Part shown: piece after piece, positions 7,964-25,047 of the stretch
Numbering within the stretch: position 1 is the first letter of the stretch
Layout: every line of letters starts with the position of its first letter
Assembly (NCBI GenBank): GCA_035547035.1
Contig: DASZVL010000092.1
Coordinates: 86,113 to 150,112, forward strand
Length of the DNA stretch: 64,000 nucleotides
Reading direction: 5' to 3'
Origin: Mycobacteriales bacterium
GTDB taxonomy: Bacteria > Actinomycetota > Actinomycetes > JAFAQI01
Notes under the pieces: model-generated
What the model saw: the letters and a program-made list of their open reading frames with translations, nothing else
Told to the model about the DNA's origin: nothing
Databases searched by the model: none
Translations under genes and position numbers: made by a program

Positions 7964-8527
7964 GTGACCGACAGCAGGCAGGCAGCGGAACAGCTGGCAC
8001 AGGTGTTCGGCTTGCGACGGGCGCCGCGATTCGAGGGCCCGTACGACGACGAGCGCCCTGACCCGCCGGCGCAGATGGTCGACGGCAGCCTCGCCCTGGC
8101 CTTTCCGCCTTCGGTGAGCAACGCGCTGCCGTTGCGCCTCGTGCCGCCGGCGCGGGCTGAGGATCTTGCACCAGAACCCTGCCCGCCATCGCAGGTCCCG
8201 AGCCCGCGCCGGTTCGTCGCGCCGTTCGCGCAGGGCGTCGCTGAGGTGCTGATGGGCGTACGCCCACCGCAGCAGCTCGCGCAGGCCGCCACCCTCGACG
8301 TACTCGGGCAGCTCGAACGCAACGCAGGCCGGCTCGCCCCACGATTGGCGGCCCGCACCGCAACCCGACCGCGGCCAAGAGTGTCGTCCGTGCGCCTGTG
8401 CGAGCCGGCGGAGGGAGTCGCCGAGGTCTGTGCGGTCGTCGACACCGGTGCCCGTCGTCGGGCTCTCGCCCTACGACTCGAGCTCATCGCCGGCCGCTGG
8501 CAGTGCACCGTCCTGCGAGTGGGCTGA
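7964..8527 (+). CDS. Rv3235-like family protein (paralog 1)
   Basis: 187 aa. C-terminal core FAQGVAEVLMGVRPPQQL...VAEVCAVVDTGARRRALALRLELIAGRWQCTVLRVG. GTG start with GGAGG 5 nt upstream. secA-proximal position, as for Rv3235. Confidence 0.75.
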   Translation: MTDSRQAAEQLAQVFGLRRAPRFEGPYDDERPDPPAQMVDGSLALAFPPSVSNALPLRLVPPARAEDLAPEPCPPSQVPSPRRFVAPFAQGVAEVLMGVRPPQQLAQAATLDVLGQLERNAGRLAPRLAARTATRPRPRVSSVRLCEPAEGVAEVCAVVDTGARRRALALRLELIAGRWQCTVLRVG

Positions 8528-8653: not shown

Positions 8654-9094
8654 ATGAAGCTCATGTTGTTGGAAGCACCGGAGACGGCGGCCGAACCGGC
8701 TGCCGCACGCGGGTTGCGGCTCGTCACCGAGCTGCCTCGGCAACGACCGCTGCCGCCCGTTCGACCGCCGCGGCGCGACCCGCGACCGGTTGCTGAGAAC
8801 TTTGCCCGCGGAGTTGCCGAGGTCCTGGTGCGTGCGCGCACCGTCGATCAGCTTCGGGACCTCGCGACGTTCGAGGTGATTCGCGTCATCGAACGCGCCG
8901 CCGGCCGCCAGCAGCCGGCCGCTGGTCGCCGGCCGGTGCAGCCGCGACTGTTGTCCGTGCACCTCGGTACGCCGGCCCCCGGCGTGATCGAGGCATGCGC
9001 AGTCGTCGATGGCGGGGTACGCGCGCGAGCATTCGCGTTTCGGCTCGAGTGCATCCGCGACCGCTGGCGCTGCACGGTGCTGCAGCTCGGCTAG
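8654..9094 (+). CDS. Rv3235-like family protein (paralog 2)
   Basis: 146 aa. The core FARGVAEVLVRARTVDQL...VIEACAVVDGGVRARAFAFRLECIRDRWRCTVLQLG aligns with paralog 1 over about 105 aa. Confidence 0.75.
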   Translation: MKLMLLEAPETAAEPAAARGLRLVTELPRQRPLPPVRPPRRDPRPVAENFARGVAEVLVRARTVDQLRDLATFEVIRVIERAAGRQQPAAGRRPVQPRLLSVHLGTPAPGVIEACAVVDGGVRARAFAFRLECIRDRWRCTVLQLG

Positions 9095-9133
9095 TCAGGT
9101 GCACTGACCGACCAGACACGTTGGTGACGCATC

Positions 9134-9256
9134 CGCATGTCACATAGATGTCGTGAAATGCAACCGCTGTGTGACATGCGGGTCGCAAATCGCGACACCC
9201 ATGTGACATGCGAGCACCGAGACCGGCACGGTTGGCAACCATGCGGGTCGCGACAC

Positions 9257-9257
<1 letters not shown>
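9134..9257. repeat. intergenic structured repeat element, copy A (three ATGT[C/G]ACAT palindromes, 32-bp phasing)
   Basis: Palindromes are centred at 9141, 9173 and 9205. The outer pair forms a perfect 12-bp inverted repeat: CGCATGTCACAT (9134-9145) and ATGTGACATGCG (9201-9212). Positions 9134-9213 align without gaps to 24531-24610 at 62/80 identity (hand count). There is an extra internal repeat, CATGCGGGTCGC[AAATCGC]GACACC, at 9175-9199 and 9240-9257. Confidence 0.8.
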
Positions 9258-12130
<2,873 letters not shown>

Positions 12131-23097: not shown

Positions 23098-24450
23098 CTA
23101 CGGGCGGCGGATCACGTCGAGAACCTCGTCGCGCAGCTTCTCCATCGTGGCGCGGTCGGCGGCCTCGACGTTGAGCCGCAGCAACGGCTCGGTGTTGGAC
23201 GCGCGCACGTTGAACCACGCATGGTCATCCAGCTCCACGGTGAGGCCATCGAGCTCGTCGGTACGGGCGGCCCGCGAGGCGAATGCCTCCCTGACTGCGT
23301 CGAGCGATGCCCTCGTGTCGGCGACTTCGCTGTTCACCTCGCCTGAGCCGACGTACCGGTCGTAGGAAGCGAGCAGGGCCGACAGCGGACCGTCGTAGCC
23401 GCCGAGAGCTGCGAGCACATGGAGTGCGGCGAGCATGCCCGAGTCGGCACGCCAGAAGTCTCGGAAGTAGAAGTGACCTGAGTGCTCGCCCCCGAACACC
23501 GCGCCGGTGTCGGCCATCGTCGCCTTGATGAAGGAGTGTCCGACCCGGGTCCGCACCGGGGTACCGCCGCGTTGACGCACGATCTCGGGCACCGCGTGCG
23601 AGGTGATGAGATTGTGGATGATCGTCGCACCCGGCTCGCGCTCGAGCTCACGCTCGGCGATCAGCGCCGTGAGGACAGACGGCGACACGATCTCCCCGCG
23701 CTCGTCGACCACGAAGCAGCGATCCGCATCCCCGTCGAAGGCAAGCCCGACGTCCGCACCTCGCTTCAGCACCTCCGCCTGGAGGTCGCGGAGGTTCTCA
23801 GGCTCGATGGGGTTCGCCTCGTGGTTCGGGAAGCTGCCATCGAGCTCGAAGTACATCGGCGTCAGGTCGACGGGCAGCGACTCGAAGACCTTGGGCACGG
23901 TAAGGCCGCCCATGCCGTTGCCGGCATCGACGACGACCCGCAGCCGGCGGAGGTCGCTGATGCCGGGCACGAGCTTGATCAGGTACGCCGCGTAGTCGCC
24001 GAGCAGATCGCGCTGCGTCACGCTGCCTCGCGGGCCGTCGGTGTCCGGCACGCCCCTCTCGGCGAGGTCACGGATGTCGGCGAGCCCGGTCTCCAAGCCG
24101 ATCGGCGCTGCGCCGGCGCGGCACATCTTGATGCCGTTGTAGCGCGCCGGATTGTGGCTCGCGGTGAACATCGCACCCGGCACACCGAGCGTGCCGGCGG
24201 CGTAGTAGAGGAGGTCCGTCGACCCCAGCCCGGCCTCGACGACGTCAGCGCCCTGCGCCGTCGCACCGTCAGCGAAAGCGGCGGCGAGGCTGGGCGAGGA
24301 CTCGCGCATGTCGTGCGCGGTCACGATCCGGTCGGCGTCGAGGAAGCGGACGAACGCGGCGCCGAGTGACCGCGCGAGCGCGGTGTCGAGCTGATCGGGG
24401 ACGACGCCCCGGATGTCGTACGCCTTGACGATCGCGCTGAGCCGACTCAC
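23098..24450 (-). CDS. manB: phosphomannomutase/phosphoglucomutase
   Basis: 450 aa. Active-site loop FTASHNPARYNGIK, metal loop FDGDADR, sugar-binding GGEHSGH. Confidence 0.95.
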   Translation of the reverse strand: MSRLSAIVKAYDIRGVVPDQLDTALARSLGAAFVRFLDADRIVTAHDMRESSPSLAAAFADGATAQGADVVEAGLGSTDLLYYAAGTLGVPGAMFTASHNPARYNGIKMCRAGAAPIGLETGLADIRDLAERGVPDTDGPRGSVTQRDLLGDYAAYLIKLVPGISDLRRLRVVVDAGNGMGGLTVPKVFESLPVDLTPMYFELDGSFPNHEANPIEPENLRDLQAEVLKRGADVGLAFDGDADRCFVVDERGEIVSPSVLTALIAERELEREPGATIIHNLITSHAVPEIVRQRGGTPVRTRVGHSFIKATMADTGAVFGGEHSGHFYFRDFWRADSGMLAALHVLAALGGYDGPLSALLASYDRYVGSGEVNSEVADTRASLDAVREAFASRAARTDELDGLTVELDDHAWFNVRASNTEPLLRLNVEAADRATMEKLRDEVLDVIRRP

Positions 24451-24530
24451 CCAGCGACGCTACCCGCGCAGATCGCTCCCATGACTCGAGCCCGCCTCGG
24501 GCCGCGCCCGACGCGTCGCGACCCCTCGCT

Positions 24531-24610
24531 CGTATGTCACACAGGTGTCGTAGATCGCTGCCCGTATGTCACATGGGCGTCGCAGATCACAACACCCATG
24601 TGACATGCGA
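24531..24610. repeat. intergenic structured repeat element, copy B
   Basis: Palindromes ATGTCACAC, ATGTCACAT and ATGTGACAT are centred at 24538, 24570 and 24602, the same 32-bp spacing as copy A. Ungapped 62/80 identity to 9134-9213. Lies between the zinc-ribbon gene stop (24643) and the manB start (24450). Confidence 0.8.
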
Positions 24611-24642
24611 TCCGGGCCGAGCGAACGCCCGGGAGGCGGCAC

Positions 24643-24918
24643 CTACTTCTTCGGCTTGGCAGTGCGGCTGAGGACGTCGGCGAAGTCGAGCGCACCCTTC
24701 GCGTCGGCCCAGACCTTGTGCTCGCAGGCGTGGCAGGAGCAGAACGTGACAGGCGTTCCGTCCGTGAGGGTCATCGCGAGGGCGGTCACGCGCTCGCTGC
24801 CGCACGACGGGCAGCATTGACCGGCGCGGGCGCCGGGGCGGGTCAGTGAAGAGGGCGTGGCGTCGCGCTGGTCGGGGATCGAAAGGCCGACAGGCTTGCA
24901 GGCGTCAATCGACTTCAT
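24643..24918 (-). CDS. small 4-Cys zinc-ribbon protein, function unknown
   Basis: 91 aa from ATG 24918, with GGGAGG 8 nt upstream. CPSCGS...CSCHAC cysteine pairs and a lysine-rich C-terminus (AKPKK). Confidence 0.6.
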   Translation of the reverse strand: MKSIDACKPVGLSIPDQRDATPSSLTRPGARAGQCCPSCGSERVTALAMTLTDGTPVTFCSCHACEHKVWADAKGALDFADVLSRTAKPKK

Positions 24919-25047
24919 GGGGGGGAACCTCCCGGTGGGCACCGGAGTTGGCTGGGATGGGGAAGACGAACAAGCAAGGTCTTCGGCGCCGCGGCCGAAT
25001 GGCTTGAGAATGCGGCGGTTCTAGGACAAATCGGACATGAGCCGCCG

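Follow-up and report, generated by a model that had tools for sequence, protein, structure and literature searches.

Phased palindromic arrays beside secA in a Mycobacteriales genome: a dispersed repeat family and a nuclease-like gene bracketed by its arrays

The gap between secA and its convergent neighbour in a Mycobacteriales genome contains three short palindromes at equal distances, and the same arrangement is found at a second site in the window (the whole stretch of DNA analysed, 64,000 nucleotides). The locus raises the question of what such an element is: a signal belonging to secA, a set of sites for a regulator, a structured RNA, or one copy of something that spreads. We addressed this through the anatomy of the two copies, their presence in relatives, the wider repeat family and the one gene found to lie between its arrays.

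Two copies in the window and their insertion polymorphism

The features of the two loci are as follows.

8654-9094, plus strand: DUF6459 gene, convergent with secA
9095-9133, no strand: left flank of copy A, missing in relatives
9134-9213, no strand: copy A, 80 nt with three cores, belonging to the palindromic repeat family F1
9137-9145, no strand: core 1 of copy A, ATGTCACAT
9169-9177, no strand: core 2 of copy A, GTGTGACAT, with one mismatch
9201-9209, no strand: core 3 of copy A, ATGTGACAT
9214-9256, no strand: right flank of copy A, missing in relatives
9257-12130, minus strand: secA, product 100% identical to P0001, the SecA of a Mycobacteriales MAG; stop codon 44 nt from copy A
23098-24450, minus strand: phosphomannomutase gene, following copy B in the minus-strand direction
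24512-24638, no strand: imperfect inverted repeat bracketing copy B, arms 24512-24532 and 24618-24638, 71% complementary
24531-24610, no strand: copy B, the second three-core F1 element
24643-24942, minus strand: conserved ORF of 99 aa, preceding copy B in the minus-strand direction, with homologous ORFs called in loci L194-L196 of relatives

Each copy carries three ATGTSACAT cores whose centres are exactly 32 bp apart (in copy B the cores occupy 24534-24542, 24566-24574 and 24598-24606), and 9134-9213 aligns with 24531-24610 without a gap at 62 of 80 positions. The pattern TGTSACA-N25-TGTSACA-N25-TGTSACA, with at most one mismatch, matched the window twice and was absent from each of 100 dinucleotide-preserving shuffles. 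Pattern and alignment agree with the first-pass annotation, which had described three palindromes at 32-bp phasing in two copies; a search of the window with nhmmer added no third one. The outer 12-nt inverted repeat reported at the same time is present and belongs to a longer one: the arms of copy A, 9134-9165 and 9181-9212, form a 32-nt inverted repeat that is 81% complementary. These arms pair with one another, placing the middle core at the hairpin tip. Copy B is nested within a larger potential hairpin formed by the bracketing arms listed above. Symmetry is chiefly a property of the element as a whole and not of the single unit. A description of each unit as a perfect palindrome of 29-31 bp was rejected, local symmetry being found only at ±1-4, ±7 and partly at ±9 and ±12 from the core centre. 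Because each copy is a near-palindrome, the orientation of A relative to B is barely resolvable (A against B, 62/80; A against the reverse complement of B, 59/80), which leaves little of the earlier statement that both lie in the same orientation.

The flanks of copy A contain further fragments. A recurring piece had been noted at 9175-9199 and 9240-9257; repeat comparison recovers it, with a partial piece at 9240-9257 repeating 9175-9186 and 9190-9199. This piece makes up a partial unit, CATGCGGGTCGC-GACACC, in the right flank and adjoins the secA stop codon. In the left flank, GTGACGCATC...GTTGGTGAC is similar to GCGTCACAACACC, the degenerate unit at the end of four-core members; judged by this resemblance, the left flank is possibly a decayed fourth unit.

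Copy A sits in a 162-nt convergent gap. In four relatives whose SecA is 85-90% identical to that of the window, the gap between secA and the DUF6459 gene is 3, 8, 11 and 29 nt (L189, L190, L192 and L193, respectively). Relative to these genomes the entire 162-nt spacer is extra DNA, not just the 80 nt that had been taken as the unit. Two of the four relatives carry the repeat family at other loci. Since the orthologous sites are empty in all four, the element is not conserved at the 3′ end of secA, and the idea of a locus-specific secA 3′ signal is not supported. On the minus strand, the stop codon of the 99-aa ORF precedes copy B by 33 nt, and the phosphomannomutase gene starts 80 nt beyond the copy. 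Of the orthologous spacers, those of L194 and L196 contain no array and that of L195 contains one with four cores. The element is therefore insertion-polymorphic. We note that a short-read contig of the same organism ends inside copy A. A metagenome scan with the SecA C-terminus returned best relatives that are 57-58% identical there, none with the element; at this identity they are too distant to be informative.

A repeat family across actinobacterial genomes

A family scan with a core-containing pattern, restricted to one genome per species, returned at least 107 loci. The hosts are uncultured soil actinobacteria, and among the matches listed Mycobacteriales/Frankiaceae MAGs have multiple matches per genome. 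The same architecture recurs within each of these genomes, so further copies do exist beyond the window. Copy A is 80-89% identical to copies in other genomes (88.8% for L007, for example).

The phasing of the cores is fixed. F1 arrays (n = 34) hold 3-6 cores each, and 90 of their 93 steps measure exactly 32 bp; the spacing does not vary freely among copies. Their sizes are uniform, in classes of 80 and 112 nt, and three-core and four-core subfamilies are distinct. Solo cores were not found, the smallest element being the triple-core 80-mer. The termini are sharply defined, about 10 nt beyond the outer core centre, and share the conserved sequence G.TCGCATGTSACAT. The central base of the core, first described as free, is C or G at 111 of 111 in-register positions in 29 arrays (56 C, 55 G); the search patterns required S, and the rule is supported mainly by the unbroken 32-bp chains. 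The identity of this base shows no association with unit orientation. Sister families (in MFD05502, MFD04434, binchicken_co54_360, CP_BM_RX_R9_1 and Streptomyces L054) retain the core, the three sites and a 30-31-bp period, and their arms are unrelated. In one lineage (MFD05502) the core is altered to ATGGSCCAT with a period of 31. Conservation of the core across families is partly built in, because all loci were ascertained with a core-containing pattern.

All arrays are intergenic; by a crude gene caller, 32 lie between convergent genes, 29 between tandem genes and 8 between divergent genes. Gene 3′ ends are the prevailing position, many arrays lying no more than 20 nt from both stop codons. 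The recurrent neighbours are members of generic families only (ABC transporters, TetR, enoyl-CoA hydratase and MFS).

The earlier impression that the element matches no recognised Rfam family was borne out, with no match at gathering thresholds anywhere in the window; a permissive local scan gave only chance-level matches to miRNA hairpins (no more than 21 bits, where the gathering scores are 50-83). Plasmid and phage collections searched by blastn with the element gave no match. A literature string search for ATGTCACAT returned primers and unrelated text only, and no description emerged from literature searches that covered actinobacterial REP/RAYT, the pairing of DUF559 with palindromes or with AbiEi, and Vsr-like proteins associated with repeats. 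The 80-nt element thus apparently belongs to an undescribed family of short palindromic repeats, which is dispersed and insertion-polymorphic.

A gene bracketed by arrays and what it may explain

A gene encoding a protein of about 313 residues is flanked on both sides by the genome's own array family at every locus read. The loci read at the DNA level comprise four loci and one short contig.

P0241, L030:128-1069: arrays on both sides
P0242, genome U6196, locus L200: F1 arrays with four cores on each side
P0258, genome MFD04434, locus L197: F3 arrays of this genome at both ends
P0275, genome MFD05502, loci L198 and L199: arrays of period 31 on each side, core ATGGSCCAT

Given the synteny of L030 with L200, the loci represent three independent genomic contexts. 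Elsewhere arrays occur about once per 30-100 kb; at that density, arrays on both sides of the gene in three independent contexts are not a matter of chance. In five more homologues, extensions of the ORF translate such cores. One homologue is encoded in the window genome: P0245 (HVV76453.1), whose accession falls in one block with that of SecA (HVV77864.1). Each MAG appears to have a single copy of the gene. Its neighbours at the three loci are unrelated genes (MFS/PtsI, Pyr_redox/YCII and DUF4233/ndk), and no gene for an AbiEii nucleotidyltransferase toxin is next to it at these loci. The upstream array lies about 90 nt from the gene. The connection of the protein to the arrays is positional.

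The AlphaFold2 (AF2) model of the protein (pLDDT 93, pTM 0.87) was searched with Foldseek. The N-terminal part matched AbiEi (6y8q, E 1.3e-4) and Rv2827c (1zel, E 9.5e-4), and the C-terminal 100 or so residues matched the catalytic domain of I-Bth0305I (3r3p, prob 0.97, TMt 0.73), with further matches to NGO0050 (3hrl, prob 0.91) and AbaSI. PADLOC assigns residues 3-166 to AbiEi (E 1e-11). Pfam gives weak DUF559 and AbiEi_4 matches, that to DUF559 being sub-threshold (best E 0.043). A profile search of PDB sequences with the protein yielded nothing meaningful, nor did hhalign find a match to E. coli Vsr, for which an approximate sequence was used; the fold assignment thus relies on Foldseek and PADLOC. 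According to the model, the protein combines an AbiEi-like winged-helix DNA-binding module with a Vsr/DUF559-like PD-(D/E)xK nuclease fold. Residues D229, H239, E240, N242 and H247 are invariant in the homologues. Candidate specificity-determining residues, which would separate ATGT-type from ATGG-type proteins, are few, at 2 of about 313 positions (n = 9). The AbiEi/DUF559-like family is large: a cutoff of E<=1e-30 gives 489 clusters, and one of E<=1e-10 about 4,800.

On balance we lean towards regarding copies A and B as non-coding, non-autonomous repeats resembling REP/BIME or REPIN elements, from a family dispersed throughout the lineage and partnered by a nuclease of a non-HUH type. Copy A would then have inserted into a tiny gap between two convergent genes. 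With cores 1 and 3 in the inverted arms and core 2 central, a single strand would fold as one hairpin of about 80 nt; in duplex DNA the three cores would lie on one helical face. The dedicated protein, normally one per genome, would recognise the cores, bind and probably nick at or near them, and may copy or maintain arrays at new intergenic sites, as is thought for RAYT and REPINs. The upstream flanking array is probably also an operator for the partner gene and the downstream array its terminator. A transcribed hairpin probably acts as a 3′-end barrier or stabiliser, an RNA effect that would be a by-product or secondary benefit. The first-pass annotation had proposed a protein-binding array. 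The strictly kept phasing and a candidate binder gene bracketed by arrays now speak for that proposal; binding itself is still a hypothesis.

The broader proposition is that arrays and bracketed nuclease gene constitute an unrecognised repeat-enzyme system of Actinomycetota, functionally comparable to REPIN-RAYT but with a PD-(D/E)xK nuclease in place of the HUH tyrosine transposase, in which the protein recognises ATGTSACAT (ATGGSCCAT in one lineage) and drives the spread or maintenance of the arrays, with co-divergence of protein and repeat. We consider the case for this proposition evenly balanced. We know of no PD-(D/E)xK nuclease that transposes DNA alone. The flanking arrays could serve the partner gene only, as operator and terminator, with dispersal by another route.

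A different account, which we think unlikely, takes array-gene-array (about 1.2 kb) as the mobile unit; recombination between the flanks would delete the nuclease gene, much as solo LTRs arise, and A and B would be the scars. The paired flanking arrays are indeed similar to one another in direct orientation (77/87 in L197, 87/117 in L200, 75/95 in L198), the genomic context of the gene differs between lineages, and its homologues are often found on contigs of 1-3 kb bounded by repeats. Direct orientation is weakly defined for near-palindromic arrays, however, and the reverse-complement comparison scores nearly as high. The single-copy state of the gene in each MAG, together with the synteny of L030 and L200, suggests that it rarely moves, and arrays of 3-6 units in three- and four-core subfamilies are better explained by independent amplification of arrays.

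A role in RNA or transcription, with a 3′-UTR hairpin, bidirectional terminator or protector of mRNA 3′ ends kept by selection and its repetitiveness incidental, seems to us improbable. The stems that had prompted the earlier reading as structured RNA or terminator are real: both copies fold very stably as RNA on either strand (z -4.8 to -8.3), the sense strand giving the more stable fold in each, and the single-stranded DNA folds score z -3.7 to -6.2, copy A forming a long hairpin as RNA and as ssDNA. The marked preference of arrays for convergent gaps and the 3′ ends of genes would also suit such a role. Yet relatives do without the element at the same loci. No terminator-like site was found in 8900-9500; the hairpin of copy A has no T-run on either strand, and it lacks the U-tract that accompanies a GC-rich hairpin in an intrinsic (Rho-independent) terminator. 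The stronger-folding strand across arrays is sense in 9 and antisense in 11 unambiguous cases, with no consistent bias, and a strand-specific RNA role is not favoured given copies in both orientations with respect to transcription. Of 31 pairs in the three-core alignment only 3 covary (covariation term -0.18), and the alignment varies too little for this figure to be weighed against sequence conservation. Moreover, a plain hairpin leaves unexplained the invariant 9-bp core in families with unrelated stems.

We attach very little credence to a classical MITE, that is, an internally deleted DDE transposon whose outer arms are TIRs and which is mobilised in trans by a full-length IS. Sharp-ended terminal inverted repeats of about 25-32 nt, insertion polymorphism and the uniform 80- and 112-nt size classes fit; target-site duplications are at chance level, direct repeats of at least 4 nt flanking 7 arrays against a mean of 4.85 in shuffled left/right pairings, and several of the boundary direct repeats (GATC/GGAT) fall within the palindromic terminus itself. 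In actinobacterial loci totalling about 0.6 Mb, no transposase was found beside an array; the only array-bracketed gene encodes a PD-(D/E)xK-type protein, and variation in tandem unit number is atypical of MITEs.

An array for a host regulator or nucleoid protein, such as MtrA boxes, through which a recruited chromosomal protein would regulate neighbouring genes or organise the chromosome, is just as hard to credit: one-face helical phasing is strictly conserved and mtrAB lies within the window, as it does in homologous loci, but the sites are at gene 3′ ends and not at promoters, their presence differs at orthologous loci of close relatives, and the array-bracketed gene offers a better candidate for a binder. 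The sites bound by MtrA and other regulators of the OmpR family are direct repeats and not palindromes. The overlap with the reported MtrA motif, GTCACAgcg (CACGCCG/CACGAGG is also reported, in promoter regions; PMC2945938), is confined to the 6 nt GTCACA, after which the element has a T before GCG. The MtrA link suggested earlier is unsupported by this overlap and by dispersed 3′-end copies that do not resemble a regulon.

If the system is as we propose, its interest is threefold. To our knowledge, dispersed extragenic palindromes have been well studied in Proteobacteria, and the RAYT tyrosine transposase is the only known dedicated enzyme; a second, unrelated enzyme class located between its own repeats would mean that repeat-enzyme partnerships evolved more than once. 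It would also give a first functional handle on the large, uncharacterised actinobacterial AbiEi/DUF559-like family, and would supply a natural nuclease, specific for sequence or structure, whose target is a defined palindrome of 9 bp. In practice, the arrays break short-read assemblies and can pass for regulatory sites beside essential genes such as secA and rplJ.

Comparison with known systems

Like MITEs such as the Correia elements of Neisseria and ERIC, the arrays are small, non-coding and insertion-polymorphic, have terminal inverted repeats and would form long hairpins if transcribed. They differ from MITEs in lacking target-site duplications and in their phased tandem structure with variable unit number; no cognate DDE transposase was found among the array loci scanned, nor an autonomous IS with the same ends in the array loci examined.

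The N-terminal 170 or so residues of the partner protein resemble AbiEi and Rv2827c both in profile and in structure (PADLOC and Foldseek matches above). AbiEi proteins are reported to bind inverted repeats in their own promoter, which fits the position of the array upstream of the partner gene. Unlike an AbiE system, the partner gene has no adjacent AbiEii, its product carries a C-terminal nuclease fold, and cognate-like sites are found genome-wide and not at one operator. The C-terminal residues superpose on I-Bth0305I, a Vsr-like EDxHD homing endonuclease, and are DUF559-like, with an invariant acidic/histidine set. The gene would further resemble those of selfish nucleases in lying within its own presumed recognition sequences. 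Unlike a homing endonuclease gene, it is in neither an intron nor an intein; the DUF559 similarity is sub-threshold, and cleavage is a prediction from the model.

The closest parallels are with REP, BIME and REPIN-RAYT systems. In E. coli and Pseudomonas, the gene for the enzyme believed to spread the classic REP repeats is likewise positioned between two repeats. REP elements are located mainly in convergent or unidirectional gene gaps, close to 3′ ends (PMC3733652), and the arrays likewise cluster in convergent and tandem gaps, often within 20 nt of stop codons. They share with REP and BIME elements the form of short imperfect palindromes, multiple loci per MAG and a strictly extragenic location; as in BIMEs, regularly spaced composite units occur in lineage-specific sequence variants, and as in REPs no target-site duplication is detected. 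The array ends bear neither GTAG nor CGTC, the unpaired tetranucleotide tags conserved at one end of REP palindromes, the invariant part being the 9-bp palindrome ATGTSACAT or ATGGSCCAT. CGTC REP families have an 8-9-bp stem starting with AT, a 4-5-nt loop and a CCA tail, features that do not fit the arrays. Single units are absent, the minimum being the triple-core 80-mer, and the host phylum, Actinomycetota, is unmentioned in the Di Nocera survey. Two approximate Y1 (RAYT/IS200) transposase queries gave no significant tblastn match in about 1.3 Mb. According to two reports (PMC3337134, PMC2817692), the RAYT gene is normally single-copy with repeats on both sides. The gene described here is likewise normally single-copy and bracketed by arrays; in place of an HUH/Y1 transposase, it is predicted to encode an AbiEi-like winged helix joined to a Vsr/DUF559-like nuclease.

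Two phased arrays in the window

A triple of palindromic cores (ATGTSACAT) at 32-bp centre-to-centre steps is present at two places in the window: on the 3′ side of secA (copy A, 9134-9213) and at 24531-24610 (copy B). None of 100 dinucleotide-preserving shuffles contained it. The copies are identical at 62/80 positions without a gap. The palindromes, their exact phasing and the second copy are thus as the first-pass annotation described them. No third copy was found in the 64-kb window by nhmmer.

8654-9094, + strand: DUF6459 gene, left border of the 162-nt gap around copy A
Centre 9141: core 1 of copy A, ATGTCACAT
Centre 9173: core 2 of copy A, GTGTGACAT
Centre 9205: core 3 of copy A, ATGTGACAT
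9257: secA stop, right border of the 162-nt gap, which copy A partly occupies
Centres 24538, 24570, 24602: cores of copy B
Copy B neighbours, both minus strand: conserved 99-aa ORF and phosphomannomutase

The outer 12-nt inverted repeat reported earlier forms the tip of a longer one of 32 nt (9134-9165 / 9181-9212, 81% complementary), and the recurring piece at 9240-9257 repeats 9175-9186 plus 9190-9199. Two details require revision. The relative orientation of the copies, read as the same, is barely defined since copy A matches the reverse complement of copy B at 59/80 positions. The core's central base, described as free, was always C or G across the 111 in-register positions examined. We note that copy B (in 24451-24642) is enclosed by a larger imperfect inverted repeat of its flanks (24512-24532 / 24618-24638), and looks as though it had landed at the apex of an older hairpin downstream of the 99-aa ORF. 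The DUF6459 gene belongs to a tandem Rv3235-like pair (7964-8527 and 8654-9094), convergent with secA and kept in all four relatives examined.

A dispersed, insertion-polymorphic repeat family

The pattern ATGTSACA-N20-30-TGTSACA-N20-30-TGTSACAT, scanned in one genome per species, matched at least 107 loci, with some 16 expected by chance. A few uncultured Mycobacteriales/Frankiaceae MAGs supply most of the matches listed, several loci apiece, and the window copies are 80-89% identical to their family members. Among the matches listed, this family (F1) is represented by 34 arrays that range from 3 to 6 cores, three or four being usual, with two truncated two-core runs; 90 of 93 steps are exactly 32 bp in a search that permitted 27-37 bp, and no solo cores were found in F1. 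Array ends are sharp, conservation stopping about 10 nt beyond the outer core centre (terminus G.TCGC-ATGTSACAT); target-site duplications were looked for at these arrays and not found. An 80-nt three-core subfamily (the window copies, L007, L025, L078, L091) is distinguished from a 112-nt four-core subfamily with a distinct head, GGTGTTGTGAC. Nearly all data derive from MAGs, and two loci (L030 and L088) appear mis-binned.

In high-GC loci, 80 arrays were examined with a crude gene caller based on GC3, and every one is intergenic; the contexts comprise 32 convergent, 29 tandem and 8 divergent cases, and many arrays lie no more than 20 nt from both stop codons. Published REP elements show the same placement (PMC3733652). 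Several arrays are adjoined by another short repeat of unrelated sequence, (A)AACCCGCAACNACCAGGGGC ... GTTGCG ... CCGGCCCGTTGCGYTGGCAC, resulting in a composite, BIME-like mosaic:

L065 2540-2620 (reverse complement); L086 6250-6317; L092 2590-2660
L022 3420-3480; L047 590-660; L195 2200-2330

In four relatives (L189, L190, L192, L193; SecA 85-90% identical to the window's), secA and the convergent DUF6459 gene lie 3, 8, 11 and 29 nt apart. The element is absent downstream of secA in these four, and the window's entire 162-nt spacer is therefore extra DNA. Two of these relatives, SMAG_U6222 and SMAG_U5953, have family members elsewhere. At the site of copy B, L194 and L196 have a short spacer with no array, and L195 has a four-core array. 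Arrays can also persist: the rplA-rplJ spacers of U6196 and SMAG_U6222 both hold one with shared flanks (95/117 identical; L086 6318-6434 against L065 2423-2539). At three of their four cores a central C in one copy faces a G in the other, or vice versa, and which base occupies the centre does not depend on unit orientation. The swaps suggest that the core flip-flops or that a C:G pair is tolerated either way round. A short-read Logan contig of the window's organism (SRR12170515; L108 3481-3525) stops inside copy A, and L199 and L030 likewise begin or end within arrays; the repeat breaks assemblies. Copy A is a member of a dispersed repeat, not a secA signal, and we regard the family and its insertion as practically certain.

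Other actinobacterial MAGs among the matches listed show the same plan on unrelated arms: three ATGTSACAT cores with a period of 30-31 bp, outer arms that are inverted repeats of each other, and spacers able to form hairpins.

MFD05502 and binchicken_co54_360: AAGCAATGTCACATTGCCCC...
MFD04434: GTTCGTATGTCACATAAGGGTTGC...
CP_BM_RX_R9_1: own variant

On the chromosome of cultured Streptomyces sp. NBC_00005 (L054 5242-5324), an (almost) perfect 80-nt palindrome with three cores at 31-bp spacing occupies a convergent-gene gap; this strain would be an experimentally tractable host if it also encodes the associated protein. Conservation of the core across families is partly ascertained because the search pattern required it; that reservation does not extend to the recurrence of the same core number and spacing on differing arms. 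Matches in Dehalococcoidia MAGs (L001, L013, L020, L021, L026, L041 and others; an AT-rich dispersed repeat with several TGTSACA sites, AAAATGTCACACTGTGACA...ACGAAAATGTCACAAATGTCACA) and Turneriella (L014, L052, L076; tandem 31-nt repeats containing ATGTCACAT) surfaced only because the pattern contained the core. These and other such matches have different architectures and may be unrelated to the actinobacterial families.

A gene bracketed by its own genome's arrays

The 2.3-kb contig L030 carries a 313-aa ORF between two arrays, with no Pfam or NCBIfam match. It has 199 homologues at E ≤ 1e-5, many on 1-3 kb contigs; the named ones all come from Mycobacteriales/Frankiaceae MAGs (one labelled Mycobacterium sp.). 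Every homologous locus read is flanked by arrays on both sides.

P0242 (U6196, L200): four-core F1 arrays, ending about 87 nt upstream of the start codon and beginning 6 nt past the stop
P0258 (MFD04434, L197): F3 arrays of the same genome, both sides
P0275 (MFD05502, L198 and 1,150-bp contig L199): period-31 arrays with core ATGGSCCAT, both sides

The association therefore holds even in a lineage with a changed core. These variant arrays (CCCCACCAATGGGCCATNNGTGGGGC-TATAG; L198 2830-2910 and 3935-4015; L199) also occur away from the P0275 gene (L079 5210-5260). They are found alongside ATGTSACAT-core families, within one genome or between close relatives, a hint that each genome may hold two repeat-protein pairs. 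The ORF calls of five further homologues extend into array cores. Away from these genes there is roughly one array every 30-100 kb, so double flanking in three independent genomic contexts is not coincidence, and the linkage is very probably real. Locus-tag prefixes suggest one gene copy per MAG as a rule. The gene is not within the 64-kb window; the window's genome encodes a homologue, P0245 (HVV76453.1), in an accession block common to the window's SecA and PMM.

At all four loci the spacer of about 87-94 nt between upstream array and gene start holds at least one TCCAC motif; by sequence, these resemble DnaA boxes or a promoter/operator element.

L200 2915-3000: GGTTATCCACC
L030 42-127: CTGTCCACGG
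L198 2905-3000: CCGTCCACAT/CCGTCCACTG/TTGTGGAC
L197 2971-3063: ATTTCCACAG

A confident AlphaFold2 model from a 44-sequence alignment (pLDDT 93, pTM 0.87) predicts a DNA-binding/nuclease fold. Over its N-terminal 170-200 or so residues it matches two structures, AbiEi antitoxin (6y8q, E 1.3e-4) and Rv2827c (1zel), and PADLOC AbiEi profiles cover residues 3-166 (E 1e-11). Matches to the C-terminal 100 or so residues are homing endonuclease I-Bth0305I, in its Vsr-like catalytic domain (3r3p, prob 0.97, TMt 0.73), DUF559-like NGO0050 (3hrl) and AbaSI. Invariant residues concentrate in this nuclease part (P228-D229, H239-E240-x-N242, H247, Q257, R259). Viral DUF559/Vsr proteins match weakly, and Pfam DUF559 and AbiEi_4 only below threshold; nothing came from searching PDB sequences with a profile or from an hhalign comparison with Vsr. 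No AbiEii toxin gene adjoins the gene at the three homologous loci read. Thresholds of E ≤ 1e-30 and E ≤ 1e-10 place 489 and 4,779 clusters, respectively, in the wider family.

Possible function and relation to known systems

AbiEi-type proteins bind inverted repeats, and we infer from this that the protein would bind the cores. It might then nick there, and binding and nicking together would spread or maintain the arrays. We put action of the protein on the arrays at slightly better than even. The main rival is a mobile array-gene-array unit, solo arrays being recombination scars. RNA-level effects, termination or 3′-end protection, are plausible as by-products, and leave the invariant core unexplained. 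Both copies are predicted to fold into a single long hairpin (RNA z −4.8 to −8.3; single-stranded DNA z −3.7 to −6.2), in keeping with the structured 3′-UTR RNA proposed earlier, but arrays face either way relative to transcription, and the strand that folds more strongly is sense in 9 cases and antisense in 11. No U-tract terminator was found at the element, which counts against the bidirectional terminator also proposed. The suggested link to MtrA boxes comes down to six shared bases and is not supported.

The element has no match in Rfam, as the first-pass annotation had supposed, or in a blastn search of plasmid and phage collections; neither these nor the searchable literature describe the family or such a gene-repeat pairing. 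RAYTs are thought to spread or maintain REPINs, and the role proposed here for the array-flanked protein is likened to theirs. Extragenic palindromes with a dedicated flanked gene are a known kind; the arrays differ in their core, triple-site phased architecture, host phylum and, above all, enzyme class.
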